From an uncultured Marinobacter sp. (GTDB lineage Bacteria; Pseudomonadota; Gammaproteobacteria; Pseudomonadales; Oleiphilaceae): a stretch of DNA of 34,585 nt. The stretch lies in assembly GCA_964521055.1 (NCBI GenBank), contig CAZFPG010000001.1, positions 1 through 34,585 of the forward strand, in the 5' to 3' direction. Shown piece by piece: positions 1,561 through 30,876 of the stretch. Under the pieces are notes generated by a model, which was not told where the DNA came from, did not search any database, and was given only the letters and a program-made list of their open reading frames with translations. Both the position numbers and the translations under genes were made by a program. Within the stretch, counting starts at the first letter, position 1, and each line of letters begins with the position of its first letter.

Positions 1561-1566
1561 CCGGCA

Positions 1567-9786: not shown

Positions 9787-10488
9787 ATGTCTTTATCGCA
9801 AACGGACCCTCACCAGTTCCAATACAACAGCCTGGAGTTGATCAAAAACCTGGTGCCGTTAAGCAGTTGTGCCTTCTTTCTGGTTGCCCCGAACATGCGG
9901 CACAAAGGCGCCATACTCCATGGCCTGAAGCCTGATGCCGAGGAAGAATACACCAGGGAATACGGTGCCCTGGACCCACTGCACCCCGAACGCTTTCGAG
10001 AAAGCTCCGACACCCTTGTAACGCTGGATTCCTGCATAGCCCCCCACCTCCTCAAGAAAACCTCTTACTACCAGGATTTCATGATCCGCCACAATCATCG
10101 CTTCGTGGCGGACATTTTCCTCCGCCGTGGTGGCCGCATCGTTGCGGGAATAAGCGTGATGCGGGAGGAAGCCATGGGCGACTTCCGGCCGGAGGAACTC
10201 GAACTGCTACAGACAATACAGCCATTCCTGGAATACACCCTGAACGCCGTATACACACCCGAAAGGGAACAGGAACGCTCAACCCTATCCGGGAAGTACA
10301 ACCTGACGGAACGCGAGCTTGATGTGCTGGAACTGGTGCTACGGGGGGCCGCCAACAAAGGGGTCGCAACAGACCTGAATCTTGGCCTGGCAACCGTGAA
10401 AACCCACTTGCACCACATCTACAAAAAAGTGGGCGTGAAAACCCGCAGCCAACTCATATCCACCATACTGTTCGAGCTGAACGACTGA
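9787..10488 (+). CDS. LuxR-type HTH regulator with an N-terminal ligand-binding domain
   Basis: C-terminal LTERELDVLELVLRGAANKGVATDLNLGLATVKTHLHHIYKKVGV. No receiver domain is evident. Confidence 0.9.
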   Translation: MSLSQTDPHQFQYNSLELIKNLVPLSSCAFFLVAPNMRHKGAILHGLKPDAEEEYTREYGALDPLHPERFRESSDTLVTLDSCIAPHLLKKTSYYQDFMIRHNHRFVADIFLRRGGRIVAGISVMREEAMGDFRPEELELLQTIQPFLEYTLNAVYTPEREQERSTLSGKYNLTERELDVLELVLRGAANKGVATDLNLGLATVKTHLHHIYKKVGVKTRSQLISTILFELND

Positions 10489-10497
10489 ATACCCATC

Positions 10498-10513
10498 TCC
10501 ACCTTTTGGTGGA
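10498..10513. promoter_or_regulatory. Putative operator of the adjacent LuxR-type regulator, TCCACC-N4-GGTGGA
   Basis: Perfect inverted repeat about 90 bp upstream of the 10603 operon, with no U-tract. A -10-like AATACT follows. Confidence 0.5.
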
Positions 10514-10602
10514 TGTTATCCCGGCCCCCTTCCCCGAATACTGTACGCTGAACCCGTAAATATCACCTTGACGGAGTACTACGAGAGGAGGCGAAAAGCC
10601 TT

Positions 10603-11910
10603 ATGTCAGAAAACAGTGTTCAGAGCCTTCTGCAACGAAGATTCCATGTAATGGGGAAGCATACGCCCCTTTTCTATGACGAACCGCTGAACCTGGTGCG
10701 GGGAGAAGGTGTCTGGCTCTGGGATGCCGACGGCAGGCGCTACCTGGATGCCTACAACAATGTACCCCACGTTGGCCACTGCAACCCACGGGTCGTTGAA
10801 GCATTGGCGCAGCAGGCTGGCACCTTGAACGTGCACACCCGGTACCTCCACAACAACATCGTTGACTACCTGGAGCGCCTGACCGCCACCTTCGATGATG
10901 GCCTGGAAATGGCAATGCTCACCTGCACCGGCAGCGAGGCCAATGAGCTGGCATTGCGCATGGCCCGCCACTGCACAGGCGGGCAGGGAATCATCGTGAC
11001 CGATTTTGCCTATCACGGAAACACCGAGGCGGTTGCCGAAACCGGCACCGGCTTCATGCCGGAAGCAAAGGGAACCAAGCGGGTGAAGTCGTTTCCCATC
11101 CCCGATTCCTACCGCGGGATTGATGGCCTGAGTGGCGAGGCATTGGCCACCGCCTATGCCGACCGCGTGCAGCAGGCAATCGATGAATTCGAGGCCGAAG
11201 GCGTGAAACTGGCGGGCATTCTGGTGTGCCCGGACTTCGCCAACGAAGGTTTGCTGAATGTGCCACCGGGATTCCTTGAGAAAGCCGTCGCAAGAGTCCG
11301 TAGCGCAGGCGGCGTGTACATTACCGACGAAGTACAGGCCGGCTTTGGCCGCAGTGGCCAGCATATGTGGGCCCATCAGTGGTACGACGTGCAACCCGAC
11401 ATCGTCACCATGGGCAAACCCATGGGCAACGGCTATCCGCTGGCCGGGGTCGTGGCGCGCCCTGATTTGATCGAGGCGTTCAGCAGGGACGCCATGTACT
11501 TCAATACCTTTGGCGGCACACCGGTCGCCTGCGCGGTCGGTATGGCGGTACTCGATGCCCTGGAGCAGGACAACCTGCTACAGAACGCGGTCACCACTGG
11601 CGCATACATAACCGAGGGGCTGCGCAAGCTGAAGGACAAGCACGAATTGATTGGCGACGTGCGTGATCTTGGCCTGTTCTTTGGCGTTGAACTGGTCAGC
11701 AGCAGGAGCAGTAAAACCCCCGCCCCCGCCGAAACCCGCCGGGTAATGAACCTGATGCGTGAGAACGGGGTTCTTGTGGGCAAGATCGGCGCCCATGACT
11801 CCATCCTCAAGTTGCGCCCTCCAATGCCATTCAAACCCGAACACGCTGACATCCTGATTGGCGCCCTCGACCAGGCGCTGGAACAGACACAGAGAGACCC
11901 CAACCCATGA
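10603..11910 (+). CDS. Class III PLP-dependent aminotransferase-fold enzyme, probable amino-alcohol O-phosphate phospho-lyase (ETNPPL/PHYKPL-like)
   Basis: Motifs YNNVPHVGH, LNVHTRYLH, GSEANELALR, AYHG, DEVQAGFGRSG, PDIVTMGKPMGNG (PLP Lys), YFNTFGGTP, LKLRPP. Overlaps the downstream kinase gene. Confidence 0.8.
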   Translation: MSENSVQSLLQRRFHVMGKHTPLFYDEPLNLVRGEGVWLWDADGRRYLDAYNNVPHVGHCNPRVVEALAQQAGTLNVHTRYLHNNIVDYLERLTATFDDGLEMAMLTCTGSEANELALRMARHCTGGQGIIVTDFAYHGNTEAVAETGTGFMPEAKGTKRVKSFPIPDSYRGIDGLSGEALATAYADRVQQAIDEFEAEGVKLAGILVCPDFANEGLLNVPPGFLEKAVARVRSAGGVYITDEVQAGFGRSGQHMWAHQWYDVQPDIVTMGKPMGNGYPLAGVVARPDLIEAFSRDAMYFNTFGGTPVACAVGMAVLDALEQDNLLQNAVTTGAYITEGLRKLKDKHELIGDVRDLGLFFGVELVSSRSSKTPAPAETRRVMNLMRENGVLVGKIGAHDSILKLRPPMPFKPEHADILIGALDQALEQTQRDPNP

Positions 11911-12929
11911 CCCCCTTCTACCAGATCACCCCCGAAGAACAAAGTGAACGGCTGCTTGAGATGGCGCGCGCTTCATTACGCCACTGGGCTATGGCGGACA
12001 GCAACCTGCAACTGGTGAAATACCGCGAGAACGCCGTATTCAAGGTGACCACCGCCGCTGGCCAGCGTTACGCCCTGAGAATCCACAGGCCGGGCTACCA
12101 CAGCCGCGTCGCGTTGCGCTCGGAGCTGCAATGGATGGAAGCCCTGCTGGAAAGCGGTATAGCGGTCCCGCAGGTGATCCCGGCGGAGGACGGCCGCCTG
12201 CTGGTCAGCGAACAGGTCGAGTCGGTACCGGAGCCAAGGGATATCGACCTCTTCGCATGGATTGATGGACCCCAGCTCGGCTCCGTGGAAGAGGGGCTCG
12301 GCAACAACGCACACCAGATCACCGACATCTACACCGCCATAGGCTCAACCGCCGCGCAACTGCACAACCACTCAAGCGAGTGGCTGATTCCAGAAGGGTT
12401 TGAGCGCCATGCCTGGGACAGTGAAGGACTGGTGGGGGAGGCTCCGTTCTGGGGACGCTTCTGGGACCTGGAGCTGCTCGACGACAGCCAGAGGCGGCTG
12501 ATGAACGCCGTTCGTCACCAGATAGGCCGGGACCTCCAGGAATACGACCGTTCAAGGCAGCGCTACGGCATGATCCACGCCGATTTTGTACCGGAGAACC
12601 TTATCACCGATAATGGTAAGGTGCGCCTGATTGATTTTGACGATGCCGGCTTTGGCTGGCACATGTTCGAGCTGGCCACGGCCCTCTATTTCATACGGGA
12701 GGAAAGCTACTTTCCCGTGGCCCACAAGGCGCTGATCGATGGTTACCGTGCCAACCGCCACCTGTCCGAGGAAGACCTGGGTTACCTGGACCTGTTCCTC
12801 GCAGCCCGTGGCTGTACCTATCTGGGCTGGATACAGAGCCGCCAGGAAACGGAAACGGCACGGGATCTCGCACCGGAACTGATACAGAGGGCATGCCTCC
12901 AGGCACAACGGTTCCTTGATTCACGATAG
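11907..12929 (+). CDS. APH/choline-kinase-family phosphotransferase (hydroxylysine/amino-alcohol kinase-like)
   Basis: ENAVFKV...YALRIHRPGYHS, Brenner motif HADFVPENL, and IDFDD. ATGA overlap with the PLP enzyme gene. Confidence 0.85.
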   Translation: MTPFYQITPEEQSERLLEMARASLRHWAMADSNLQLVKYRENAVFKVTTAAGQRYALRIHRPGYHSRVALRSELQWMEALLESGIAVPQVIPAEDGRLLVSEQVESVPEPRDIDLFAWIDGPQLGSVEEGLGNNAHQITDIYTAIGSTAAQLHNHSSEWLIPEGFERHAWDSEGLVGEAPFWGRFWDLELLDDSQRRLMNAVRHQIGRDLQEYDRSRQRYGMIHADFVPENLITDNGKVRLIDFDDAGFGWHMFELATALYFIREESYFPVAHKALIDGYRANRHLSEEDLGYLDLFLAARGCTYLGWIQSRQETETARDLAPELIQRACLQAQRFLDSR

Positions 12930-12950
12930 CTGGATGGAAACACCTGAAAA

Positions 12951-14183
12951 ATGTCTGATCCGAGCAGTTCGTCGATACCCGCGCCTGACGAAGATCGCAC
13001 AAATTTCAGGAAAGTATGCATCGCCCTGACCTGTACGTTCATCGTGCATGCCATGCTACTGGTGACCGTGCCCGTACACGCGGTAAACCTCGGCGCAACA
13101 CCACTGGTGCTCGGTGTTATTTTCAGCACCCCCTATTTGTTGCCGCTGGTGTTTGCGATCCCTCTCGGAAGCGTTGTGTCACGGTTCGGAGGCAGGGCCT
13201 CGATGGTGTCCGGGGCATTGCTCATGCTCCTTGGCCTGACGAGCATGCTGACCCTGCCAGGTTACCCTGGCCTGATTGTCGGCCAGCTCTGCTTTGGCCT
13301 GGCCCAGTTGCAGATGGTGCTTTCCGCCCAGACCATCATTTCCGCCCTGGGCACCGGGCCGGTGCTGGAACGCTACTTCGGGTGGTACACCACATGGCTT
13401 TCCGGCGGCCAGATCCTGGGACCGCTGCTTGCCGGTAGCCTGATTCACGCCAGCGACACAACCACCACGTCGTTTATCGCGATGCTGGTGGTTGGCGCAT
13501 GCTCACTGGCAGCGGCCATTCTGTTGGGTGGCCAGGCCCGGCAGGGGCAACGGATCGATTGGCGATCAACCGGTTTCAGGGCCCAGGGAAGCCTGTTCCT
13601 CACCAGCCCCGGCGTGAAAATATCCATCGCCGTGACCAGCGCCGCAACGTTTGCAATGATTATCCACGGCAACTACCTGCCGGTACTGCTGAACGACCTT
13701 GGCGTTACGGCCACAACCATCGGCGTGCTGGTCAGTCTGCGTGCCGTCGCGGCCATGATAATCCGGCCGTTCATCGCCGGTACCATTGTCCTCGTGGGCG
13801 GGCGCGGTAGCGCCATGCTGGTTTCCATTACCCTTCTCGCCGCTGGCCTGATGTTCCTCGGCACCACCGACAACCTCATCCTGATAGCGGTTTTCTCCAT
13901 TCTCGTTGGCTTCGGCTCCGGGGTCTGCCAGCCCCTGTCGATCGTTATCCTGTCGGAAAGCGTGGACAATGCCCGGCGTTCCGGCGCGCTCGGCATGCGC
14001 CTGATGGCCAACCGTGGCGTCAACTTTGTTGCACCACTGCTGTTTGGCGCCATCCTGGAACTCGGTGGTTTTGGCGTCTCGTTCATCCTGACCGGGGCGG
14101 TGCTTGTTCTCTGCCTGTTCCTGGTCCATGCGTTGCTGCGCGTCAGTGGTTTTTCAAACGCGCAAAAAAAAGCCGGCGAGTAA
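12951..14183 (+). CDS. MFS transporter
   Basis: 410 aa with about 12 hydrophobic segments and a motif-A variant (GSVVSRFGGR). Starts 21 bp after the kinase stop. Confidence 0.9.
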   Translation: MSDPSSSSIPAPDEDRTNFRKVCIALTCTFIVHAMLLVTVPVHAVNLGATPLVLGVIFSTPYLLPLVFAIPLGSVVSRFGGRASMVSGALLMLLGLTSMLTLPGYPGLIVGQLCFGLAQLQMVLSAQTIISALGTGPVLERYFGWYTTWLSGGQILGPLLAGSLIHASDTTTTSFIAMLVVGACSLAAAILLGGQARQGQRIDWRSTGFRAQGSLFLTSPGVKISIAVTSAATFAMIIHGNYLPVLLNDLGVTATTIGVLVSLRAVAAMIIRPFIAGTIVLVGGRGSAMLVSITLLAAGLMFLGTTDNLILIAVFSILVGFGSGVCQPLSIVILSESVDNARRSGALGMRLMANRGVNFVAPLLFGAILELGGFGVSFILTGAVLVLCLFLVHALLRVSGFSNAQKKAGE

Positions 14184-14192
14184 ATCGCCGGC
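14164..14192 (-). terminator. Rho-independent terminator of the hpa-gabD operon
   Basis: GCCGGCGA-gtaaa-TCGCCGGC hairpin (14172-14192) next to A8 (14164-14171), which reads as a hairpin plus U8 on the minus strand. Confidence 0.75.
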
Positions 14193-14237: not shown

Positions 14238-15692
14238 TCAGTTGATCCCCAGGCACATATATTTCTGCTCGACGTAGTCGTCGATTCCGTAATGGGAGCC
14301 TTCACGCCCCAGGCCGGACTGCTTGATGCCGCCAAACGGGGCCACTTCGGTTGAAATCAGGCCTTCGTTCACACCCACCATGCCGTATTCCAGGGCTTCA
14401 CTGACACGCCAGGAGCGGGCCAGGTCACGGGTGTAGATATAGGACGCCAACCCGAACTCGGTATCGTTGGCCATCTGGATGGCTTCCTCCTCGGTGTCAA
14501 ACCCGAACACCGGGGCCAGCGGCCCGAAGGTTTCCTCGTAGGCAACCAGCATATCGGTGGTGACACCCGCCAATACCGTCGGCTGGAAGAAGTTACCGCC
14601 CCGCTCGTGGCGCTCGCCACCCACGACAATCGATGCCCCCTTGGCAACCGCATCGTCAATGTGCTCCTTGACCTTGAGCACCGCGGCTTCGTTGATCAAG
14701 GGCCCCTGCTGGACGCCTTCCTCGATGGCCTCGCCGACGCGAAGTTCAGACACCGCCCTGGCAAGCTTCTCCGTGAACTCAACGGCCACCGGGTTCTGCA
14801 CCAGAATCCGGTTGGTACAGACACAGGTCTGCCCGGCATTGCGGAATTTTGAATCAATGGCGCCCTGTACAGCGGCGTCAATATCCGCATCCTCAAAAAC
14901 GATGAAGGGCGCATTGCCACCCAGCTCCAGGCTGAGTTTCTTGATGGTGCTGGCACACTGTTCCATCAGCAGCTTGCCAACCCCGGTGGAACCGGTGAAG
15001 GACAGCTTGCGCACTTTCGGGTTGGTGGTGAGCTCGCCACCGATCTCACGGGAACTCCGCCCCGGCACCACATTCAGCACACCGGCGGGCAACCCGGCCC
15101 GCGCACCCAACTCCGCCAGCGCCAGGGCCGACAGGGGCGTTTCGGAAGCGGGTTTGAGCACAACGGTACAGCCCGCGGCAAGCGCCGGCCCCACTTTGCG
15201 GGTGATCATCGCATTCGGGAAGTTCCAGGGCGTGATCGCGGCAACAACACCAACCGGTTGCTTGATGACAACCAGTCGACGGCCGTCCTTGTCATGGGGA
15301 ATCACATCCCCATAGGTGCGCTTGGCTTCCTCGGCGAACCATTCTATAAAGCTGGCGCCATACAGGATCTCGCCCCGGCTTTCCGCCAGCGGCTTACCCT
15401 GTTCAGCGCTGAGGATCCGCGCCAGGTCTTCCTGGTTTTCCACGATCATATCGAACCAGCGCCGCAGGATTTTCGAGCGTTCCTTTGCCGTTGTCTTGCG
15501 CCAGGTTCTCCCGGCTTCCTCGGCCGCGTTGATCGCCCGGGCGGTTTCCCTCTTGCCCACCGATGCAATCTCGGCAACCAGCTCACCGTTGGCGGGATTG
15601 CGGACTTCCATCAGGTCTCCGCTTTCAGCATCCGTCCATTCGCCGTTGATAAAGGCGTTTCGCTTGATCAGTTGTTGGTCAAGGAGCTTCAT
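14238..15692 (-). CDS. gabD: NAD(P)-dependent succinate-semialdehyde dehydrogenase
   Basis: ITPWNFPNAMITRK, SFTGSTGVG, LELGGNAPF, SKFRNAGQTCVC, EETFGP. It consumes the succinic semialdehyde released by HpaI. Confidence 0.92.
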   Translation of the reverse strand: MKLLDQQLIKRNAFINGEWTDAESGDLMEVRNPANGELVAEIASVGKRETARAINAAEEAGRTWRKTTAKERSKILRRWFDMIVENQEDLARILSAEQGKPLAESRGEILYGASFIEWFAEEAKRTYGDVIPHDKDGRRLVVIKQPVGVVAAITPWNFPNAMITRKVGPALAAGCTVVLKPASETPLSALALAELGARAGLPAGVLNVVPGRSSREIGGELTTNPKVRKLSFTGSTGVGKLLMEQCASTIKKLSLELGGNAPFIVFEDADIDAAVQGAIDSKFRNAGQTCVCTNRILVQNPVAVEFTEKLARAVSELRVGEAIEEGVQQGPLINEAAVLKVKEHIDDAVAKGASIVVGGERHERGGNFFQPTVLAGVTTDMLVAYEETFGPLAPVFGFDTEEEAIQMANDTEFGLASYIYTRDLARSWRVSEALEYGMVGVNEGLISTEVAPFGGIKQSGLGREGSHYGIDDYVEQKYMCLGIN

Positions 15693-15709
15693 GATGCATA
15701 CTTCCTGAA

Positions 15710-16519
15710 TTAGTAAACGCTGTTATCGGTGTCGGAATCATCCACGGGGGTCCCGGATTTGAACGTCGCGGCCAGGGATTTCAGCGCCCTGGTGAGAATG
15801 GATGTGTCGACACCCACGGCAACGAAGTTTGCACCGAGCTCCAGGTACCGCCTGGCCAGCTTTTCATCAGCGGCAAGGATGCCCGCCGCCTTGCCACAGG
15901 AACGGATGGTGCGGATCCCGTTCTCGATGGCATCCTGTACCTCCGGATGCCCCGGGTTCCCCAGGTGCCCCATGGCAGCGGCAAGATCCGCCGGCCCGAT
16001 GAATACCCCATCAACACCCCGGACATTGGCGATCGCCTCCAGGTTTTCCAGGCCCGCCACCGTTTCAACCTGCAGCAGCAGGCAGACTTCCTCGTCGGCA
16101 CGCTGCAGGTAGTCGGGTATGGAGTTCCAGCGCGAAGCCCGGGCCAGGGCACTGCCCACGCCCCGGACACCGCCGGGGGGATAGTGCGCGGCACGAACGA
16201 TTCCCTCGGCCTGCTCCGCGGTATCCACCATGGGCACCAGTAATGTCTGGGCGCCAAGGTCCAGTAGCTGCTTGATGCCGACCGTTGAACCGTCCGGTGG
16301 CCGGACTATTGGATGGGAGGCATAGGGCGCGATGGCCTGGAGCTGCGAAAGGATCGAGGGAATGGTGTTGGGCGCATGCTCGGCATCAATCAGAAGCCAG
16401 TCAAACCCCGCATTGGCCGCCAGCTCGGCCGGGTAGGCACCCGCAAGGCCAAGCCACAAACCGATCTGGGCCGAGTCTTCACGCAGTTTTGCTTTGAAGG
16501 TGTTGGTCATTAAGTCCAT
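15710..16519 (-). CDS. hpaI: 4-hydroxy-2-oxo-heptane-1,7-dioate aldolase
   Basis: Start moved to MDLMTNTFK (GAGG RBS), giving 269 aa. Motifs [37 protein letters not shown]. Confidence 0.94.
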
Positions 16520-16532
16520 GGGGCGCCTCGGC

Positions 16533-17336
16533 TCACATAAAGCGACATGCAATGGATCCCAGTTGATCGTAATCAACGTGGAACGTATCCCCCGGATTGG
16601 CATCGACGGGGCGTGTGAACGAGCCACCCAGGATGATCTGGCCGGCCTCGAGCTGGACATCGTAGGGAGCCAGCCGGTTTGCAAGCCAGGCGACCCCCTT
16701 GGCCGGATGATTCAGTACCGCCGCGGAAACGCCGGACTCCTCAATGACACCGTTGCGGTACAGCACCGCTGATACGCGCCGCAGGTCCACCTCGTGGGGA
16801 AGGATCGGGCGGCCACCCATAACGATGCCGCCGTTCGCCGCATTATCGGAAATGGTATCGAACACTTTCCGGGTAACCTGGGTGTCCGGGTCAATACGCT
16901 GGATACGGGCATCGATGATCTCCAGTGCCGGCACCACGTACTCCGTCGCCGCCAGTACGTCAAAGATGGTGCAGTTGGGGCCCTTAAGCGGCTTTTTCAG
17001 GATGAAGGCCAGCTCCACTTCGACCCGGGGCACGATAAAACGCTCAAACGGGATGTCCGTGCCCTCTTCAAACAGCATGTCGTCAAGCAGGGCGCCGTAA
17101 TCCGGTTCGGTGATGTTCGAGGACACCTGCATTGCCCGGGACGTCAATCCGATCTTGTGGCCGATCAGCTTGCGCCCCTCCGCGATCTTGAGGTCCACCC
17201 AGGCTTTCTGGATGGTGTAGGCGTCCTCAATGGTCATTTCAGGGTTCTGAAGTGACAGCTGTTTGATCTGTTTACGGGATCGCTCAGCTTCGTGAAGCCT
17301 TCTGGCGGCTTCCTGAACGACATCTTTGTTAAGCAT
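16533..17336 (-). CDS. hpaH: 2-oxo-hept-3-ene-1,7-dioate hydratase (HpcG)
   Basis: Start moved to MLNKD, giving 267 aa. Motifs [30 protein letters not shown]. Confidence 0.95.
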
Positions 17337-17387
17337 GGGGGTCGCCCTCGTCATAGGGTATCCACACAGCGTTGCGAACCATTTTTT

Positions 17388-17783
17388 CTACGGCTCCGAC
17401 TGCTGCTTCAGGAACGAATGAATGTTGTTGCGCTTGTAGTTCAGATCCGGATTCAGCTCAGCCAACTCGAAGGAGATCGCCAGGAGGCGTTTTTCCTGCA
17501 GCTCCGCGAAATGGGCCTTGATCGTTTCGAACAATGCATCGCCCGCATGCCGGCGAACCTCCAGCGAGCGCCCGGAACCGACCTTCAATGTCATATGGAC
17601 GAAGCCGTAATCGTGTTTCGCATCCGCGATCCGATAGGTCTCGGCTTTTACCGCGCGGCTGCGAATGCCTCCCATGGGGAAAGCGCCGGTGTCACCCAGG
17701 GTCTGGTGCACCTTCTCGAAAAGCCCTGGCAGGTCGATCTCGTCTTCAAGATTGCCGGAATACTCAACGATGAAATGTGGCAT
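17388..17783 (-). CDS. hpaF: 5-carboxymethyl-2-hydroxymuconate isomerase (HpcD)
   Basis: N-terminal catalytic Pro (MPHFIVEYS), FPMGGIRSRA, and NYKRNNIH. Confidence 0.95.
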   Translation of the reverse strand: MPHFIVEYSGNLEDEIDLPGLFEKVHQTLGDTGAFPMGGIRSRAVKAETYRIADAKHDYGFVHMTLKVGSGRSLEVRRHAGDALFETIKAHFAELQEKRLLAISFELAELNPDLNYKRNNIHSFLKQQSEP

Positions 17784-17793
17784 CGTTCTTTCC

Positions 17794-18651
17794 TCAAATC
17801 GGGAAAATGGCGTTCAGCTGGCCGGTGCCCGAGCTACCGAAAGGTTCGGTCAGCACCTCAACCTTTCCACGGTATTCGCGCCCGCCCAGCAGGCCCAGCA
17901 ACATAGCCGTGTCGTGCATGCCGCCCTCGCCGAAGCAATGCTGGGCATAGTCAGGCAGCATGTCGCAGAACTCCTCGAAGCGGCCCTCTTTCCACAGCTC
18001 CACTATCCGGAGGTCCACCTGGCGGTCAAACTCCCGGGTCCACTTGTGCAGGTTGTCCTGGGCTTTCCGGTCGTCCGAGAAACGATGCGACAGGGAACCG
18101 GACGCCAGCACAAGCACCTTCCTGTCGCTGCGCTCGATAGCACGGCGCACCGCCGCTCCGAAGGTGAAGCTGTCCTCCAGTCTGTGCCAGGCACACCAGG
18201 CGGCCACTGACACAACCTTGAAATGATCTTCCTTCGGCATGTCCATGTTCATATAGCGCATGGGCACCAGGGAGCCGTACTCCAGCTCCAGGCTCGGGAT
18301 GTCATGGGCCAGCGTGCGAACATCAGCCCCGTTGGCCTCCTCCGCGATCAGTTTTCCCAGCTCGGTATCGCCCTGATACTCATACTCCATGTCGCGAATA
18401 AAGTGGGGCAGCTCGTTGCTGGTATACACACCACTGAAGTGATCACGGCAGTTCAGGTGGTAGCCGCTGTTGACGAGCCAGTGCACGTCGAAGATAACAG
18501 CCGTATCCGCCCCTGCGTCCCGGGCCCTTCGTGCGATCTCCTTGTGCCCGGCTATCGCCTTCTCACGGCAACCATGATGCGGCCCCGGCATTTCGGAAAG
18601 ATACATTGACGGAACGTGACAAACCTTTGCTGCCAGCGCGATTTCACCCAT
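17794..18651 (-). CDS. hpaD: 3,4-dihydroxyphenylacetate (homoprotocatechuate) 2,3-dioxygenase (HpcB)
   Basis: LigB-type extradiol dioxygenase: HVPSMYLSE, FDVHWLVNSGYH, SGSLSHRF, GMHDTAML. Confidence 0.96.
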   Translation of the reverse strand: MGEIALAAKVCHVPSMYLSEMPGPHHGCREKAIAGHKEIARRARDAGADTAVIFDVHWLVNSGYHLNCRDHFSGVYTSNELPHFIRDMEYEYQGDTELGKLIAEEANGADVRTLAHDIPSLELEYGSLVPMRYMNMDMPKEDHFKVVSVAAWCAWHRLEDSFTFGAAVRRAIERSDRKVLVLASGSLSHRFSDDRKAQDNLHKWTREFDRQVDLRIVELWKEGRFEEFCDMLPDYAQHCFGEGGMHDTAMLLGLLGGREYRGKVEVLTEPFGSSGTGQLNAIFPI

Positions 18652-18696
18652 AACACATCTCCTTGAGACCCTGTCAGGCCCATCATTATTGTCGAG

Positions 18697-20157
18697 TCAG
18701 ACGCCCCAGCGCGGGATGTGATGACTGCCCATCGAGATACAGACGTTCTTCACCTCGGTAAAGACTTCAAAGCTGTACTCACCGCCTTCACGGCCGGTGC
18801 CCGACCCCTTGATGCCACCGAAGGGCTGGCGCAGGTCACGAACGTTCTGGCTGTTGATAAAGACCATGCCGGCTTCAATACCCCGGGCCAGCCGATGTGC
18901 CTTACCAATATCCTGTGTCCAGATGTAGGACGCCAGTCCATACTGGGTATCATTGGCAAGTTTCAGCGCCTCGGCCTCGTCCTTGAACTTTATCAGGCAG
19001 ACCACGGGGCCGAAGATTTCCTCCTGGGCAATGCGCATCCGGTTATCAACGTCCGCAAACACGGTCGGCTGAATGAACTGGCCCTTGCTGACGCTGTCCG
19101 GCAGGCCTTTGGGTCGCTCAAGGCCGCCAGCCATCAGTTTGGCACCCTCTTCCAGGCCCAGCTTGATGTAACCGGTCACCTTGTCGTAGTGCGCCTGGGT
19201 GATCATGGACCCCACCTGTGTGTTCGGGTCCTGGGGGTCCCCAACAATCAGGCGCTTGGCACGGGCCGCAAACTCCTCGACAAATTTGTCGTAGGCGCCT
19301 TCCTGGATGAAGATCCGGCTACCGGCGGTGCAACGCTCACCGTTCAGGGAAAAGATCGTGAACAGGGCCGCGTCCAAGGCGCGATCCAGGTCCGCATCGT
19401 CGAAGACCAGCACCGGAGATTTGCCGCCGAGTTCCATGGAATACTTCTTCAGGCCGGCATTGGACATAATCTTCTGGCCGGTTGCCGTGCCACCGGTAAA
19501 CGAGATGGCGCGAACATCAGGGTGTTTCACCAGCGCGTCACCAGCGGTGTGGCCATAGCCCTGGACCACGTTGAGAACGCCCTTGGGAATTCCTGCTTCC
19601 AGTGCCAGGCGACCGAGCTCGTTCGCGGTCAACGGCGACAACTCCGACATTTTCAGCACCGCCGTGTTACCCAGCGCAAGGCAGGGGGCGGTTTTCCAGG
19701 TCGCGGTCATGAACGGCACGTTCCAGGGCGACACCAACCCACAAACACCGACAGGCTGGTGCAGTGTGTAGTTGAGCATCTGGTCATCAACCGGGTAGGT
19801 GTGGCCGTCCATGCGGGTACACACTTCCGCGAAGAAGTTGAAATTGTGGGAGGCGCGGGGAATCAGCACATTCCTGGTCTGGTGGATGGGCAGCCCGGTA
19901 TCCAGTGTTTCCAGTTCCGCCAGTTGCGGTACGTTTTCGTCGATCAGCTCGCCAAGACGCCGCATCAGGCGCGCACGTTCCTTCGCCGGCGTATTGGCCC
20001 ACTTGGGGAACGCCTCTTTCGCAGCCGCAACCGCCTGGTTGATCTCGTCCTGGCCGCCGCTGGCAACCTTGCAAATGACCTCACCCGTTGCCGGGTTGAC
20101 GTTCTCAAACGTCTCTTTACCGGCGACCTGCTCGCCGTTGATCCAATGCTTGATCAT
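18697..20157 (-). CDS. hpaE: 5-carboxymethyl-2-hydroxymuconate semialdehyde dehydrogenase (HpcC)
   Basis: Start moved to MIKHWING (GAGGTG RBS), giving 486 aa. Motifs SPWNVPFMTATWK, NGERCTAGSR, and C-terminal HHIPRWGV. Confidence 0.96.
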   Translation of the reverse strand: MIKHWINGEQVAGKETFENVNPATGEVICKVASGGQDEINQAVAAAKEAFPKWANTPAKERARLMRRLGELIDENVPQLAELETLDTGLPIHQTRNVLIPRASHNFNFFAEVCTRMDGHTYPVDDQMLNYTLHQPVGVCGLVSPWNVPFMTATWKTAPCLALGNTAVLKMSELSPLTANELGRLALEAGIPKGVLNVVQGYGHTAGDALVKHPDVRAISFTGGTATGQKIMSNAGLKKYSMELGGKSPVLVFDDADLDRALDAALFTIFSLNGERCTAGSRIFIQEGAYDKFVEEFAARAKRLIVGDPQDPNTQVGSMITQAHYDKVTGYIKLGLEEGAKLMAGGLERPKGLPDSVSKGQFIQPTVFADVDNRMRIAQEEIFGPVVCLIKFKDEAEALKLANDTQYGLASYIWTQDIGKAHRLARGIEAGMVFINSQNVRDLRQPFGGIKGSGTGREGGEYSFEVFTEVKNVCISMGSHHIPRWGV

Positions 20158-20170
20158 AGTCTTCACCTCT

Positions 20171-20935
20171 CTAGGCGTGATTCGCAAAAAATTCGGATTC
20201 CGTCACAATCGTATTCGTCAGGCGGCCAACGCCCTCGACCTCTACCGTTACCTCATCCCCGGGCTTCACATCGGCAAGCCCCTTGGGGGTCCCCGTCGCG
20301 ATCATGTCGCCGGGCTGGAGGGTCATGAAGCTCGAGAGATATTCAACAAGGAACGGAATATCGAAGATCATGTCCGCGGTCGTGCCTTCCTGCTTCAGCT
20401 CGCCGTTAATCCATGTCCGGATGCGCAGGTTATTGGGGTCGGAAATGGTGTCTGCATCCACGATCCAGGGCCCCACCGGGGTGGTGGCATCCCGGTTCTT
20501 GACGCGCAGATTGGGGCGGTAGTAGTTCTCCAGGTAATCGCGGATCGCATAGTCGTTGCAGACGGTATAGCCGCACAGGTAATCCAGTGCATCCTCGCGC
20601 CTGACGTTCCTGGCTTCCTTTCCGATAACCGCAACCAGCTCGCACTCGTAGTGCATGTAGTCGACGTTATCCGGGCGCCAGGTGACCTTGCGGTGGCCGG
20701 TATAGGTGTTTGCCGCCTTGATAAACACCAGCGGCTCCTCCGGCGCCTTGAAATCGAGTTCGGCGGCGTGGTCGGCGTAGTTGAGCCCCAGTGCGAACAT
20801 ATTGCCCTCTGCGGGGGGCAGCCACTCGACATCCTCGGGGGTCACGCGGCTCTCATCGGGCAGGATGACATCGCCTTTATGGTCGACCAGGACGTCCAGC
20901 ACCTGGTCATTGAACTTGATGCGTGCTCGCTTCAT
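20171..20935 (-). CDS. hpaG2: HpaG isomerase/decarboxylase, C-terminal subunit (FAH family)
   Basis: ALGLNYADH, MHYECEL, NDYAIRDYLENYYRPNLRVK. Confidence 0.92.
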   Translation of the reverse strand: MKRARIKFNDQVLDVLVDHKGDVILPDESRVTPEDVEWLPPAEGNMFALGLNYADHAAELDFKAPEEPLVFIKAANTYTGHRKVTWRPDNVDYMHYECELVAVIGKEARNVRREDALDYLCGYTVCNDYAIRDYLENYYRPNLRVKNRDATTPVGPWIVDADTISDPNNLRIRTWINGELKQEGTTADMIFDIPFLVEYLSSFMTLQPGDMIATGTPKGLADVKPGDEVTVEVEGVGRLTNTIVTESEFFANHA

Positions 20936-20949
20936 GACATGACTCCTTG

Positions 20950-21609
20950 TTATTCCGCCACGATGGTATTGGTCAGGGAGCCAAGCCCCGATACTTCAAC
21001 CACCACCTGGTCTCCGGGTTTGACATCAACCCGCCCGCCAGGGGTGCCTGTTATCAGCACGTCGCCTTCGTTCAGGGTCATGAACTCGGTAATATCCACC
21101 AGAAGTTCCGGAATGCTCCGAACCCAATCCGCCGTGTTGCCTTCCTGGCGAAGCTCTTCGTTCACAAACAGCTTCACAACCAACTGATCGGGGTCCGTGA
21201 TTCCGGCAAGCTCAACCAGTTCCGGGCCCATGGGGCAAAACCCGTCGCGGCACTTCGCCTTGACCGCCGGCCGGTAATAGCTGTCTTCGGGGAGACTGAA
21301 TTCATTGACGATGGTCAGCCCGGCCACGTATGACAACGCGTCGTCCTTCCTGACGCGGCTCGCTTTCCTGCCGATGACAACGCCAACCGCCGGCCCCGGC
21401 TGCAGCCGGTCGCAGGATGCGGGAAAGGTCACAGTGCCCTGGTGCCGGTTGCGGGTATTGGGTGTCTTGATAAACAGAACCGGCTTGGTCGGGGGCGCTT
21501 TGTAGGGCGCCTCCCGGAACTCGGCCAGCTTGCTGTCAAGCAGGCTGTGGTAGTTCAGGGCAACCCCGAAGATGGTGCCGGTCGCCGCCTCGTCGATTGG
21601 GCGTGTCAT
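20950..21609 (-). CDS. hpaG1: HpaG isomerase/decarboxylase, N-terminal subunit (FAH family)
   Basis: GTIFGVALN, PYKAPPTKPVLFIKTPNT, SYYRPAVKAKCRDGFCP. Confidence 0.92.
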   Translation of the reverse strand: MTRPIDEAATGTIFGVALNYHSLLDSKLAEFREAPYKAPPTKPVLFIKTPNTRNRHQGTVTFPASCDRLQPGPAVGVVIGRKASRVRKDDALSYVAGLTIVNEFSLPEDSYYRPAVKAKCRDGFCPMGPELVELAGITDPDQLVVKLFVNEELRQEGNTADWVRSIPELLVDITEFMTLNEGDVLITGTPGGRVDVKPGDQVVVEVSGLGSLTNTIVAE

Positions 21610-21790: not shown

Positions 21791-23290
21791 TCAATAGGTA
21801 ATGCACACAGACTTCAGTTCAGTGAATCCTTCGATGGCACTCCTGCCGAACTCCCGTCCCATTCCGGACTGTTTAAAGCCCCCAAACGGAAGGTTCGGAT
21901 CCACCGGCACATGGTTGTTCACCCAGACGGTGCCCGCTTCGATCTCGGGAATCAGCTTCATTACCCGGGTCAGGTCATTGCTCCAGATACTGGCGGTCAA
22001 TCCATACCGACTGTCGTTCACCTTCATCAGTGCGTCTTCCACTGTATCGAAGGGCACAACGGACAATACCGGCCCAAAGATCTCCTCCTGAACGCAGCTC
22101 ATGCTCTGGTCAACGTCCGACAAGACGGTGGGATTAACGAAGTAGCCCGGCAGCGTGCTCTTCTCGCCACCAGCCGCAAACACAGCCCCTTCCCGCCTGG
22201 CAGCCTGAAGGTAGCCCTCCACACTGGCCAACTGCTTTTTGGAGACCAGGGCGGTGATTTCAGAGGAAGGATCCATCCCGGCACCAACCTTCATTTGCTT
22301 GACCGCGCTGGCCAGAGCTTCCACGAATTTCCTGTACTGGCTCTTGTGGACGTAGATCCGCGAAGCGGCGGCGCACACCTGCCCCTGGTTCAGCAGGCCA
22401 CCACCAATCGCCCCTCCGACAGCCTGCTCGATGTCCGCATCCTCCAGGATCAACATCGGGTTCTTGCCACCGAGCTCCAGGGTAAAGCGGGTCATGTTTT
22501 CAATGGCGGCAACACCAACCTGCTTGCCCACCGCAGTGGAACCGGTGAAGGACACCTTGTTGACCAGCGGGTGGGAAACCAGCGCCGCACCTGCTTCCGC
22601 GCCACTGCCCACAACCACGTTGAATATACCGTCGGGTATGCCGGCCTCACGCGCCAACTCCGCCAGACGAAGCGCGGTCAGCGGGGTTTCATCCGCCGGC
22701 TTGATGACAATGGAGCAACCGCAGGCCAGCGCCGGCATGACCTTCCACAGGGCAATCATCATCGGGAAATTCCAGGGCACGATACCGGCGACAACACCGG
22801 CAGGCTCCCTGCGGGTATAGGCATTGAAAGAAGCCCCCTGTGGCACGGGAATGGACACATCCAGGGTCTGCCCCTCGATCTTGGTTGCCCAGCCGGCCAT
22901 ATAACGCATGTAATTGACGGAAGCGCCAACATCAATGCCACGGGCCACATTGATGGATTTACCCTGGTTAAGGGTTTCCAGTTGGGCCAGTTCCTCACCA
23001 TATTCCTCTACCAAGGTGGCGAATTTCAGCAGGGTGAGCTCACGCACATTGGGTGCGAGCTTGCTCCAGACACCGGACTTGAACGCCTTGTAAGCGGAGT
23101 TGACGGCACGGTCCACATCTCCCGCACCGGCGGGCTGATACGAAGACAGGGTGTCACCCGAAGCGGGATTGAAAACGGGCATTGCCCCGGAAGCGCTGGA
23201 CGGCACGGGCTGGCCATCAATAAAGGAACAGTGGGTCCGGTCCACAAACTCCGCCACCTGGGAAAGAATGGCTGTATCTGCTGTTGTCAT
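21791..23290 (-). CDS. feaB: (Hydroxy)phenylacetaldehyde dehydrogenase
   Basis: ALDH with FeaB/PeaE/StyD-type segments: LETLNQGKSI, MRYMAGWATKIEGQTLDVSIP, TLELGGKNP, NQGQVCAAASR, FTELKSVCI. Confidence 0.85.
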   Translation of the reverse strand: MTTADTAILSQVAEFVDRTHCSFIDGQPVPSSASGAMPVFNPASGDTLSSYQPAGAGDVDRAVNSAYKAFKSGVWSKLAPNVRELTLLKFATLVEEYGEELAQLETLNQGKSINVARGIDVGASVNYMRYMAGWATKIEGQTLDVSIPVPQGASFNAYTRREPAGVVAGIVPWNFPMMIALWKVMPALACGCSIVIKPADETPLTALRLAELAREAGIPDGIFNVVVGSGAEAGAALVSHPLVNKVSFTGSTAVGKQVGVAAIENMTRFTLELGGKNPMLILEDADIEQAVGGAIGGGLLNQGQVCAAASRIYVHKSQYRKFVEALASAVKQMKVGAGMDPSSEITALVSKKQLASVEGYLQAARREGAVFAAGGEKSTLPGYFVNPTVLSDVDQSMSCVQEEIFGPVLSVVPFDTVEDALMKVNDSRYGLTASIWSNDLTRVMKLIPEIEAGTVWVNNHVPVDPNLPFGGFKQSGMGREFGRSAIEGFTELKSVCITY

Positions 23291-23432: not shown

Positions 23433-23532
23433 TTCCTCCGGCTCGTCTGACTCGTACTGATTCCGAATATGCCAAACTGGGTTAGAATCCTGGCTTGACC
23501 GAAACCCAACGATGAGAGGATTTTTCAGATCC

Positions 23533-23955
23533 ATGTCGAAAACTCGCCCCTCCCTGACCCTGACCCTGCTGCAGGCAAGAGAAGCAGCCATGGCTTTCTT
23601 CCGGCCCTCACTCAACAAGCATGGTTTTACCGAGCAGCAGTGGCGAGTCATCCGCATCCTGAACCAGCACCAGGAGGTTGAGGTCTACAGGCTTGCCGAA
23701 CTGGCCTGCATTCTCAAACCGAGCATGACCGGCGTACTCAACCGCATGATTCGGGACGGCTATGTCGTCAAACGGAAATGTGATGAGGACCAGCGGCGCG
23801 TCCACGTGAAGCTGACGGAAAAAGGCGAGGAAGCCTTTGCCGCAATGAAGGAAGACATGGAACGAAACTACCAGAAGATCCAGGACCAGTTCGGCGATAA
23901 GAAAATGCAGGAACTGCTTAAACTCCTGAACGAGCTCAAGAGGATAAGCCCCTGA
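23533..23955 (+). CDS. hpaR: Homoprotocatechuate operon repressor (MarR family)
   Basis: SLTLTLLQAREAAMAFFRPSLNKHGFTEQQWRVIRIL...ACILKPSMTGVL. The start could also be 23512. Confidence 0.94.
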   Translation: MSKTRPSLTLTLLQAREAAMAFFRPSLNKHGFTEQQWRVIRILNQHQEVEVYRLAELACILKPSMTGVLNRMIRDGYVVKRKCDEDQRRVHVKLTEKGEEAFAAMKEDMERNYQKIQDQFGDKKMQELLKLLNELKRISP

Positions 23956-23983
23956 GCCGTCGATAGCAGCCGCAGGTAACGAC

Positions 23984-24919
23984 ATGGCGGATACCCATAC
24001 CATACCGAACATCAATATTGGCCAGGTTTACGACCAGCGCTACCTTGATGCGGATATCCACTACGAATCACTGGGCAAGCTCGCCAACTTTTTTGGCCGC
24101 AACATGCCAGTCCACCGCCATGACCGCTTCTTCCAGGTGCACTATGTGCTCAGCGGCATGGTCCGGGTATTTCTCGACGAGAAGCGGTATGAAGCCCGTG
24201 CCCCGATGTTTTTCCTGACACCACCCACGGTGCCGCACGCCTTCATTACCGACAGCAGGAGTGACGGCCACGTGCTCACCGTCAGGCAGCAGCTGATCTG
24301 GCCACTGCTGGAAGCGCCTCACGGCCTTGGCTCGGGCCCCTTCATCAGCCCGGCCTGCGTCGCCCTGAAGGAGCAGCCCGGCCCGGGCATCATCACCGCC
24401 GGCGAAGTCAGCAACCTGTTCAACGCCGTGCGGGAGGAGTTCGTTTCCAACCGGCCCGGAAAAAACCTCGCACTGGAGAACCTGATCCGGCTGATCTTTA
24501 TCAACCTGTTCAGGCTCTCGAACTCGAACCGAGAGCAGGGCTTTACCACCCGCAGCGAGGACATGCTGTTCTTCCAGCGCTTCAACGAAAAAATCGAAAC
24601 CCATTTCAGGGAACACTGGCCACTGTCGACCTATGCCGACTGCCTTGGCGTCACGGAGGCACGGCTCAACGATATTTGCCGGCGGATTGCCGATTTGCCG
24701 TCAAAGAAAATCGTTCATGAGCGTTTGATGCAGGAAAGCAAACGACTGCTCCTGTTCACAAACCAGTCCATCAACGAGATCTGTTTTGAGCTGGGCTTCA
24801 AGGACCCGGCCTATTTCAGCCGATTTTTCTCAAGGAATGCGGGCATCAGCCCGGGCCACTATCGCAACAGAAGCGGCAAGAGAGAAAAGAGCCAGACCCT
24901 TAGCTGCCCCCCCTCCTGA
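23984..24919 (+). CDS. hpaA: 4-hydroxyphenylacetate catabolism activator (AraC family)
   Basis: IPNINIGQVYDQRY, FFGRNMPVHRHDRFFQVHY, and C-terminal GFKDPAYFSRFF. Confidence 0.93.
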   Translation: MADTHTIPNINIGQVYDQRYLDADIHYESLGKLANFFGRNMPVHRHDRFFQVHYVLSGMVRVFLDEKRYEARAPMFFLTPPTVPHAFITDSRSDGHVLTVRQQLIWPLLEAPHGLGSGPFISPACVALKEQPGPGIITAGEVSNLFNAVREEFVSNRPGKNLALENLIRLIFINLFRLSNSNREQGFTTRSEDMLFFQRFNEKIETHFREHWPLSTYADCLGVTEARLNDICRRIADLPSKKIVHERLMQESKRLLLFTNQSINEICFELGFKDPAYFSRFFSRNAGISPGHYRNRSGKREKSQTLSCPPS

Positions 24920-28110: not shown

Positions 28111-29520
28111 ATGAGCATAACGAACGTATCAGGCGATCCAAAGGAGGGGACCGCCGTGGGCGAGGGAACAAAAACCCAGGGTAAAAAACTCGGTTTCATG
28201 ACCATGCTGGCCATCTGTATAGGCCTGGTTATTGTGCAGGGTTCCATGATTACCGCCACCCAGGGCATAGGGCTTGGTGGTACGGCATTCATCGCCGCCA
28301 TGGTTACCGCGTATATTCTGGCGCAATGCAATGCCTTCACTTTTTCGGAACTGTCGCTGATGTTCCCCCAGGAAGGAACACTCGCGACCTACACCCAAAA
28401 GGCCATCGGCCATTTCCCGGCCATTATCTCCGTCTTTTCTGGCTATGTGGTTGTCGCCATGCTGGCGATACCGGTGGAAATGTTCCTGGTAGACGCCATC
28501 ATCGGCGAATTGCTGCCCGGCGTCTTCCCGCAGTATGTGATCCCATTTGGCATACTGGCGTTCTTTGCGTTCACCAACTACCTCGGCGCCGACGTGTTTG
28601 CCGGCGCCCAGAACATCCTTGCGTTCATTCTGGTGGTCGCACTCGTCCTGCTTGGCCTGAGCGCCGTGACCGGTGCTGTTGAACCGCATCCCGTCGTAAG
28701 CGGACCAACCATCGACTGGAGTTTTGGCGGTGTACTGGATGGCAGCTTTCTCGGGATGGTCGCCATGGCAATGTGGCTGATGGTGGGCGTTGAATTCATC
28801 TGCCCGATGATCAACGAAGTGAAAGATCCGGAAAAGAACATTCCCCGGGCCATGAGCCTGTCGCTGACGGCCATGCTTGCCATATTCCTGGTTTTCGTGT
28901 CCGGTGTGGGCTTCTATATGAACACCGACACCATCCTTTCCTCCCCCATTCCCTACCTCGACTATGCCAATGCCGTCTTTGGTCAGGGAGGGCTGATCGT
29001 CGCAGCCATCATGGCGGTTGCAGCCACCTGCAGCACAGTCAACACGGTACTGGCCGGCGTTCCGCGGATGCTGCATGGCATGGCGGAAAACAGGCAGGCC
29101 TTTCCGCAGCTGAAAATTGTCAGCAAGAAATACGGCACTCCCTGGGTCGGCATTGTGTTCATGGTGGTCATTATTGCCATTCCCGTGGTGCTGATGGGCA
29201 TTGACGACCTGATCACCCTGGTTATCGCCGCATCCACGAGCTGGCTTCTGGCCTACGTCGTCTCCCACATTGATGTCCTTGTTCTGCGCCGCACCATGCC
29301 GAACCTCAGGCGCCCCTACAAAACCCCGTTCTATCCGCTCCCGCAGATCATAGGCATTGTGGGCATGACGTATGTGGCCTTTAACAACTCACCGTCCCCC
29401 GAAATGACAGCCCTGGTCTACAAGATTACCGGCGGCATCCTGCTGGTTATCAGCATCATCGCTGCGCTTTGGGTGAAGTTCTACATGAAACGCGGCCTGT
29501 TTGAGGCGGACCTTTCCTGA
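28111..29520 (+). CDS. APC-family amino acid/amine permease (candidate aromatic-amine transporter)
   Basis: 469 aa with about 12 TM segments: FSELSLMFP, VGVEFICPMINEVKDPEKNIPRAM, PRMLHGMA, RPYKTPFYP. Confidence 0.9.
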   Translation: MSITNVSGDPKEGTAVGEGTKTQGKKLGFMTMLAICIGLVIVQGSMITATQGIGLGGTAFIAAMVTAYILAQCNAFTFSELSLMFPQEGTLATYTQKAIGHFPAIISVFSGYVVVAMLAIPVEMFLVDAIIGELLPGVFPQYVIPFGILAFFAFTNYLGADVFAGAQNILAFILVVALVLLGLSAVTGAVEPHPVVSGPTIDWSFGGVLDGSFLGMVAMAMWLMVGVEFICPMINEVKDPEKNIPRAMSLSLTAMLAIFLVFVSGVGFYMNTDTILSSPIPYLDYANAVFGQGGLIVAAIMAVAATCSTVNTVLAGVPRMLHGMAENRQAFPQLKIVSKKYGTPWVGIVFMVVIIAIPVVLMGIDDLITLVIAASTSWLLAYVVSHIDVLVLRRTMPNLRRPYKTPFYPLPQIIGIVGMTYVAFNNSPSPEMTALVYKITGGILLVISIIAALWVKFYMKRGLFEADLS

Positions 29521-29553
29521 AACCAGGCTCGTTAATCCAGTTGTCTCCGCCTC

Positions 29554-29585
29554 GCCCGGGCCCTTTGCAGTTCCCGGGTTTTTTT
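29554..29585 (+). terminator. Rho-independent terminator after the APC permease
   Basis: GCCCGGG...CCCGGG stem followed by T7 (29579-29585). Confidence 0.7.
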
Positions 29586-29609
29586 GGCCAGAGGCAGTTG
29601 TTCATGTTC

Positions 29610-29654
29610 AACCTGCTGGCACTGAATGCGGCCATAGAAGCTGCCCGGACAGGC
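29610..29654 (+). pseudogene. 15-codon remnant of a methyl-accepting chemotaxis gene
   Basis: Reads [15 protein letters not shown], the conserved chemoreceptor hairpin tip, with no flanking MCP sequence. Confidence 0.75.
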
Positions 29655-29664
29655 GCCATTCCCA

Positions 29665-30609: not shown

Positions 30610-30637
30610 AGTAAAACCTCCTGGTGCGCTTAAACTC

Positions 30638-30651
30638 GTTAACATGTTACC
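30638..30651. promoter_or_regulatory. HpaR-like operator in the feaR leader
   Basis: GTTAACATGTTACC, one mismatch to the TTAA-N4-TTAA core. Confidence 0.45.
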
Positions 30652-30685
30652 AAAATAAACACGAAACGCCCTTCCCGGGCATAGA

Positions 30686-30790: not shown

Positions 30791-30876
30791 CATCAGGTCA
30801 CAGGCGGGTGGTAATGGCTGGGTAATTTGGTAACAGCCCGAGTTTATCCGGTGGCCTACCCCTCAAACGCGATGGC

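Follow-up and report, generated by a model that had tools for sequence, protein, structure and literature searches.

A coupled kinase and phospho-lyase gene pair beside a homoprotocatechuate operon: a candidate route for phenylethanolamine breakdown in an uncultured Marinobacter sp.

Layout of the kinase and lyase locus

Within a 34,585-nucleotide stretch of DNA from an uncultured Marinobacter sp. (GenBank assembly GCA_964521055.1, contig CAZFPG010000001.1, positions 1 to 34,585; the whole stretch is hereafter called the window), we characterised two adjacent genes encoding a class III pyridoxal phosphate (PLP) enzyme and an APH-family kinase. The two open reading frames share an ATGA (11907-11910), and the reading frame of a major facilitator superfamily (MFS) transporter starts 21 nt past the kinase gene, so close that it is probably co-transcribed with the pair. 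This gene order, as well as the motifs YNNVPHVGH, HTRY, YFNTFGG and LKLRPP in the PLP enzyme, had been described in an initial annotation, and all of it was found in the reading frames. The same annotation interpreted the genes as a new, O2-independent way of deaminating octopamine- and noradrenaline-type arylamines, an interpretation that, taken as a whole, is partly supported. The module of two enzymes is real, conserved and regulated; judging from its gene neighbours, from which the substrate is read, it probably comprises a phenylethanolamine kinase and a phospho-lyase that feed arylacetate pathways. What would be new is the substrate class and not the reaction, the chemistry of which is already known.

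The pair adjoins the hpa operon, as initially noted: the MFS gene is convergent with a succinate-semialdehyde dehydrogenase (SSADH) gene ending at 14238 (TIGR01780, above cut-off), which terminates the run hpaG1-G2-E-D-F-H-I. NCBIfam cut-offs were passed by hpaI, H, D, E, G1, G2, R and A, with hpaF falling short (177 vs 215). The annotated feaR was confirmed above the NF007243 cut-off, and the annotated feaB only in part: its product is 52.7% identical to E. coli FeaB, and its best NCBIfam model, StyD, scores 652 against a cut-off of 850, for which reason we call the gene FeaB-like. It lies directly upstream of the hpa operon and is co-directional with it. Further along are hpaR, hpaA, a TRAP transporter, an APC permease, FeaR, an outer-membrane protein that recurs in 41 of the 80 related loci surveyed below, and a phenol-monooxygenase-family gene, whose product is a candidate ring hydroxylase that may replace the missing HpaBC. 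Neither an amine oxidase nor hpaBC was found among the 30 window genes with Pfam and NCBIfam. Copper amine oxidase, quinohemoprotein amine dehydrogenase and HpaB were not found in the genome (80% complete), where seven partial flavin amine-oxidase matches were seen and the search for tryptophan tryptophylquinone (TTQ) amine dehydrogenase was run without a positive control. Coordinates are collected in Table 1.

Table 1 Features of the kinase and phospho-lyase locus in the window
Feature	Position	Strand	Basis or remark
Class III PLP enzyme, amino-alcohol O-phosphate phospho-lyase clade, 435 aa	10603..11910	+	Aminotran_3 (PF00202)
APH-family small-molecule kinase, 340 aa; predicted phenylethanolamine O-kinase	11907..12929	+	Pfam APH
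MFS transporter, 410 aa	12951..14183	+	PF07690 (MFS_1); local addition
LuxR/GerE-family regulator, likely activator of the pair	9787..10488	+	PF00196
Near-palindromic operator, core TCCACC-N4-GGTGGA; likely LuxR box	10497..10517	+	Conserved spacers
Terminator-like hairpin between convergent MFS and SSADH genes	14172..14192	-	Consensus scan only
hpaG1 G2 E D F H I and SSADH (homoprotocatechuate meta-cleavage operon)	14238..21609	-	NCBIfam; predicted downstream pathway
FeaB/StyD-like arylacetaldehyde dehydrogenase	21791..23290	-	52.7% to E. coli FeaB; predicted acceptor of the lyase product
hpaR and hpaA regulators	23512..24919	+	NCBIfam, above cut-off
APC permease, FeaR, outer-membrane protein	28111..32391	no single strand	NCBIfam/Pfam
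Phenol 2-monooxygenase-family flavoprotein, truncated at contig end	32700..34583	+	PRK08294, 1013 vs 560

Family assignment of the PLP enzyme and the kinase

Among solved structures, the PLP enzyme matched 5G4I (E = 7.7e-132) and 6TOR (3.7e-112) best and the next family at 4.3e-55, so that some 57 orders of magnitude in E-value separate the two solved phospho-lyases from every other class III structure. Hallmarks of class III and fold type I are present (D242-E-V-Q245 and the catalytic K272), and Y51, R80, K403 and R405 are the same as in 5G4I in the alignment. Across 99 relatives, Y51 and R80 are kept in 97, K272 in 98, and K403 and R405 in all 99, the remainder being gaps, and Y51, R80, K403 and R405, the 5G4I-type phosphate-site residues, are absent from two other class III clades of the same loci. 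The corresponding Tyr, Arg, Lys and Arg of 5G4I are said to bind the substrate phosphate, a finding attributed to Cuetos in 2016. On these sequence comparisons the enzyme is a member of the phospho-lyase family (ETNPPL, PHYKPL, A1RDF1), as had been proposed. An excerpt of PMC6750192 confirms the identity of 5G4I, and one of PMC8154272 gives the phospho-lyases and PbfA as the known class III lyases. PbfA identity was rejected (NF049939, 209 bits against a cut-off of 525), as was that of a PRK06148/PRK06149 kinase-lyase fusion of the hydroxylysine-kinase type (~1000 aa), to which the lyase half only corresponds (502 vs 1128 bits); the kinase gave no match to these two models at E = 1e-10.

The PLP enzyme might instead be a plain tyramine or dopamine transaminase, with the kinase acting separately on a ring hydroxyl or a toxic compound. 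Such an arrangement would explain the aromatic neighbours too, in a window that encodes no other amine-removing enzyme; RefSeq labels the relatives aminotransferases, and the kinase is weakly similar to AmiN (E = 1.6e-13). We nevertheless regard it as very improbable in view of the retained phosphate-site residues that the two other class III clades lack, of the second, ordinary class III enzyme (PRK07481 family) that stands beside the lyase in several loci, and of a kinase that is nearly always adjacent or fused.

For the kinase, a structure model (pLDDT 96) had as its top match 6EF6 (TM 0.83, Z 34.9, rmsd 2.3, 309 residues aligned), titled 'microcompartment-associated aminopropanol kinase' and 32-34% identical to the window protein. 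The APH fold, the Brenner motif and the metal-binding DFDD are all present, and E41/N42, H224-D226-N231 and DFDD are kept from 6EF6. The signature segments differ, with RENAV, HADFVPEN and RGCTYLGW in the window against SENAT, HADLRLAN and RRLLLLAW in 6EF6; the window clade carries R40, V228, E230, Y261, G302, T304, Y305 and R312 where the 6EF6-like clade has S, R, A, S, R, a variable residue, L and H. That clade of 18 rows (support 100, long branch) stood apart from the window's relatives in a quick tree of 90 of the 124 kinases, from which 34 near-identical Pseudomonas rows had been dropped and which did not include 6EF6 itself. Its member L123 matches 6EF6 at 2.5e-81, the window kinase only at 1.1e-50, and it is this clade that carries the 6EF6 signature residues and the bacterial microcompartment (BMC) and eut loci. 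Membership of the 6EF6-type aminopropanol kinase clade was accordingly rejected. Kinase positions 228-229 and 262-266 correspond in the alignment to H204/H205 and N238/W241/Y242, residues of the AmiN acceptor pocket described in PMC7314540, which also delimits the AmiN subfamily at 32% or more identity; at 16-19% to the AmiN chains, an antibiotic-inactivating kinase (APH, AmiN) was rejected as well. The loss of two arginines and the gain of tyrosines would fit a larger aromatic acceptor.

Two natural kinase-lyase fusions were found (P0029 and P0132). Separately, some broad-clade kinases (L102, L126, P0023) are paired or fused with class III enzymes other than the 5G4I-type lyase, so partners are swappable. 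The kinase was found in none of the 90 further genomes searched from this genus, and the GC content of the region is 0.59 against 0.58 for the genome; the kinase and lyase trait is patchy and probably transferred.

Neighbourhoods and regulation of related pairs

In GTDB genomes we found 380 loci, of which the best 80 were kept (76 with the lyase) and scored over a neighbourhood of ~10 kb. Genes were called with a dipeptide scorer that recovers all 30 window genes, and the marker set was drawn from the window, E. coli K-12 and annotated loci, part of it being taken from the loci themselves and named by Pfam or NCBIfam. The lyase is followed directly by the kinase in 98 of the 106 loci that have both genes, and all hpa, feaB and feaR marker matches of the 3.86-Mb assembly lie on one 34.6-kb contig; the arrangement of the locus is therefore not due to chance. 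The linkage anticipated by the initial annotation was borne out and extends to paa and amine oxidase genes: 39/80 loci carry hpa, paa or feaB, 45/80 carry hpa, paa, FeaB-like or amine oxidase/dehydrogenase genes in varied orders, and 54/80 carry any aromatic marker. Loci with FeaR only (9/80) were left outside the strict count, as many of the copies in Pseudomonas border a ring-dioxygenase/amidase cluster that is unrelated. Two other elements of that annotation held for the window and not beyond it. For the MFS gene, no counterpart was seen in any of 125 further loci scored, and it was rejected as a core part of the system. Nor is the lack of an amine oxidase the rule, with relatives often adjoining an amine oxidase of the copper, TTQ or flavin type or an additional class III transaminase.

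After dereplication of the clade, 24/51 loci had hpa, paa, FeaB-like or amine oxidase markers and 18/51 had hpa, paa or feaB. Aromatic markers occur in 11/14 loci of the window's own subclade (support 97) and in 6/18 of a mostly alphaproteobacterial sister clade. The clade nearest 6EF6, drawn from 40 regions cut from genome searches, served as control and had hpa, paa or feaB in 0/18 loci, a copper amine oxidase in 1/18, and eut or BMC genes in 4/18 (5/19 including L089). Fisher tests of clade versus control gave p ~0.002, a significance that is overstated, since kin are not independent and L089 was put in the control by its context. Six of the 10 plasmid records examined, out of 93, had hpa, paa or tyramine-oxidase genes. 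Culturable carriers of the pair include Pseudomonas jessenii DSM 17150, Rhizobium etli and Halomonas organivorans.

The strongest cases of linkage are in Rhizobium, where the pair reads in one direction into hpaF-E-D-gabD-G-H-I, and in Mesorhizobium, where it reads likewise into paaX-paaABCDE-Z. In Phyllobacterium the pair adjoins a gene annotated 'tyramine oxidase', at one locus (L017) it directly follows a 4-hydroxyphenylacetate 3-hydroxylase (above cut-off) and luxR, and at two (L024 and L036) it lies within a TTQ amine dehydrogenase-feaB-feaR cluster. The partners vary between lineages but have one chemistry in common: the joins to hpa, paa and three kinds of amine oxidase suggest a product of the form Ar-CH2-CHO and, together with the chemistry of the family, a substrate Ar-CH(OH)-CH2-NH2.

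A luxR gene stands directly before the lyase in the window and in 13 related loci, and in all 14 luxR-lyase spacers a near-palindrome is followed ~20 nt on by a conserved TACT element. A matrix derived from these spacers ranked the window site first in the genome (29.9, the next at 20.1; 6 sites at 16 or more); a sigma-70 scan found no consensus promoter. The near-palindrome and TACT are likely the LuxR box and promoter, and the conserved operator ties the pair to the upstream LuxR, which likely switches it on through this site. In relatives, the matrix also matches before genes for an outer-membrane protein and a 470-aa aldehyde dehydrogenase, a porin, a USP-tripartite transporter and TctC-SDR, SDR denoting a short-chain dehydrogenase/reductase (L002:7772, 3151, 3502; L004:11061; L005:1155; L007:3147-3517; L008:3149-3518; L047:5924; L040:8570). 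None of these additional sites was used in building the matrix, and they appear to outline a LuxR regulon.

Several observations weigh against an aryl substrate. The closest characterised kinase and lyases use small aliphatic amino alcohols. Aromatic markers are missing from 27/51 dereplicated clade loci and 12/18 sister-clade loci (some of them short), four of the 10 plasmid records have no hpa, paa or amine oxidase genes, and the 27 FeaB-like matches come mostly from one Pseudomonas lineage. The matrix scan found no LuxR box before feaB or hpa in the window, where both have regulators of their own. For the 470-aa aldehyde dehydrogenase that is co-regulated in close relatives, fold comparison gave no substrate (8YEN is titled 'Aldehyde dehydrogenase' only), and an orthologue of it (56%) adjoins the 'tyramine oxidase' gene in Phyllobacterium; the enzyme was not found in this genome, so that the FeaB-like enzyme would have to serve. 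Lastly, 14/80 loci have an SDR closest to the aminopropanol dehydrogenase structures 3PK0/6CI8/6CI9, and 49/126 have a gene resembling that of an ethanolamine permease (334 vs cut-off 382).

As parts of an aminoacetone route, the SDR and the permease keep alive the alternative of an aliphatic route. The substrate of the pair would then be a small amino alcohol (ethanolamine, hydroxylysine, or 1-amino-2-propanol derived from aminoacetone) and the product propionaldehyde, acetaldehyde or the semialdehyde of an amino acid, with amine-catabolic islands serving merely as a vehicle. A kinase and phospho-lyase route for aminopropanol was reportedly found in Pseudomonas by Turner in the 1970s; the best structural match of the kinase is the microcompartment aminopropanol kinase, and those of the lyase are ethanolamine-phosphate enzymes. 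We consider this alternative unlikely. Markers of prp (propionate), eut, BMC and tdh/kbl (threonine) occur in 0/80 loci once six 'prpR' matches, generic sigma-54 activators, are dropped, and neither microcompartment shell nor acylating aldehyde dehydrogenase genes were found in the window or the 80 loci. The clade nearest 6EF6 is the separate one, and the holder of the BMC and eut contexts; the acceptor-pocket residues differ; and an aliphatic route leaves unexplained why the pair is repeatedly joined to arylacetate or arylamine systems of three different kinds.

Reduction of aryl aminoketones or interconversion of enantiomers would be an equally fitting role for the SDR, whose position beside the pair would also suit an aromatic pathway with a related substrate: an SDR-reduced aryl aminoketone, a beta-hydroxy aromatic amino acid of the phenylserine type or its decarboxylation product, or an amine that is hydroxylated in the side chain and has a different ring system. 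Shinella and L065 have pyridoxal-dependent decarboxylases near the pair, and the occurrence of both paa and hpa contexts implies that ring substitution varies. Neither SDR nor decarboxylase is present at the window locus, and, according to the same excerpt of PMC8154272, the amine on which a class III enzyme works is generally not next to a carboxylate; we judge such a substrate distinctly improbable.

Predicted route and its relation to known systems

In the preferred reading, that of a phenylethanolamine kinase and phospho-lyase, the amine (candidates being octopamine, noradrenaline and 2-amino-1-phenylethanol) would be taken up, possibly by the MFS transporter or the APC permease, and O-phosphorylated at its benzylic hydroxyl at the expense of ATP by a kinase whose fold and motifs are present and whose acceptor is predicted. 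The lyase would form a Schiff base at Lys272, the proton on the amine carbon would be removed, phosphate lost and the enamine hydrolysed to give Ar-CH2-CHO and NH3; this sequence of Schiff base, phosphate elimination and enamine hydrolysis is established chemistry for the phospho-lyase family. The FeaB-like dehydrogenase would oxidise the aldehyde to 4-hydroxyphenylacetate or homoprotocatechuate, and the hpa operon, whose genes are in the window, would cleave the ring. N-methyl amines such as synephrine and adrenaline would have to be demethylated first, because PLP requires a primary amine. Amine oxidases would convert beta-hydroxylated amines to mandelaldehydes, and the pair more likely serves these amines than replaces the oxidases; it would complement the oxidases and transaminases of non-hydroxylated amines, both amine classes converging on the same aldehyde. 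The O2-independence stressed initially adds little, given that the hpa pathway requires O2 and that dehydrogenase or transaminase entries are O2-free as well.

Among known systems, A1RDF1 of Arthrobacter aurescens (5G4I/5G4J), human ETNPPL (6TOR) and PHYKPL share with the window lyase the class III clade, the active-site residues and the logic of phosphorylating and then eliminating. PHYKPL is said to work with hydroxylysine kinase (Veiga-da-Cunha, 2012). The known substrates of all three are aliphatic, whereas the window context points to aryl compounds and the partner kinase comes from another branch. PbfA, also a class III PLP enzyme, likewise converts R-CH(OH)-CH2-NH2 to R-CH2-CHO and NH3; unlike the predicted pair, it eliminates water and needs no kinase. 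The E. coli TynA-FeaB-FeaR-Paa route for phenylethylamine shares the FeaB-like dehydrogenase, FeaR and the arylacetaldehyde junction, but its entry is the oxidation of amines without a beta-hydroxyl. The closest solved kinase, 6EF6, belongs to the Rhodococcus/Mycobacterium microcompartment (RMM), and a related SDR recurs near window-type pairs; the window kinase differs in clade and pocket residues, has no shell genes nearby, and the class III enzyme of BMC-containing loci is a different one, 25-27% identical to the window lyase. Three RMM-like loci with shell proteins, a kinase and a class III enzyme without the 5G4I-type phosphate residues were seen in genomes of the window's class or phylum (L089, L090, L113). 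The RMM locus is described in PMC4207490, which, like PMC5897657, serves here as background only.

The suggestion that the conversion was undescribed stands in part. Cuskey et al. reportedly showed in 1987 that Pseudomonas aeruginosa turns octopamine into 4-hydroxyphenylacetaldehyde and NH3 through octopamine dehydratase (EC 4.2.1.87), so the net conversion is on record, and what would be new is the ATP-dependent two-step route and its genes. Octopamine dehydratase and synephrine dehydratase (EC 4.2.1.88) dehydrate directly, with no ATP, and yield the same net products as predicted here (4-hydroxyphenylacetaldehyde with ammonia or amine); to our knowledge no gene is assigned to either. The P. 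aeruginosa activity probably belongs to a different enzyme from the pair, since no P. aeruginosa-named cluster was among the best 120 kinase relatives (the largest cluster has 264 members, with names partly shown). Literature searches, with most subscription journals outside their coverage, returned no description of a kinase-dependent octopamine route or of the two dehydratases.

Octopamine, noradrenaline and phenylethanolamine serve animals as signalling molecules and are components of plant defence amides. We know of no gene tied to the bacterial breakdown of such beta-hydroxylated aromatic amines, and no paper naming one was found in the literature searches. If the reading is right, it would name genes for this breakdown, reassign a widespread group that now carries labels such as 'phosphotransferase', 'homoserine kinase', 'RdoA' or 'aspartate aminotransferase', and provide a stereoselective aryl amino-alcohol kinase and possibly an octopamine/noradrenaline biosensor.

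More speculatively, the pair may belong to a horizontally spread regulon for sensing, importing and consuming octopamine and noradrenaline, comprising a LuxR-type amine sensor and its operator, a means of uptake, a new clade of kinases whose pocket takes aryl groups, the phospho-lyase and an aldehyde dehydrogenase; in Pseudomonas a linked chemoreceptor would be added. This doubtful but possible scheme would extend to plant amides, N-feruloyl-octopamine for example, through the adjacent amidase and the feruloyl-CoA genes (Fcs/Ech), both halves of the compound being degraded within one island in this genome.

The left part of the window encodes a MarR regulator, a p-hydroxycinnamoyl-CoA hydratase/lyase (above cut-off) and a feruloyl-CoA-synthetase-like ligase (149-3597), followed by an AraC regulator, a SphA-type channel, an MFS transporter and an amidase (4947-9674, the amidase at 8235-9674). 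Hydroxycinnamoyl-CoA genes, amidase and pair together could split hydroxycinnamoyl amides. The amidase has 6-aminohexanoate-cyclic-dimer hydrolase as its closest structure, and its cassette precedes luxR only in the window and at L004.

Other gene associations recur around the pair. One block comprises IclR, a UPF0261/Tm-1-like protein, a HAD hydrolase, the PRK07481 transaminase, lyase and kinase, with not every gene everywhere (L104-L107, L109, L128, L129, L138, L139, L141), and is often joined to hpa and sometimes to a cytochrome P450. Many Pseudomonas loci (L020-L073) have a conserved cluster 3' of the kinase with a FeaR-like regulator, a ring-hydroxylating dioxygenase, an SDR, an amidase, a SnoaL protein, an HsaA-like monooxygenase and a flavin reductase. 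In four loci (L020, L042, L048, L053), a YcaO-type peptide-modification cluster, whole or partial, is inserted upstream of the pair.

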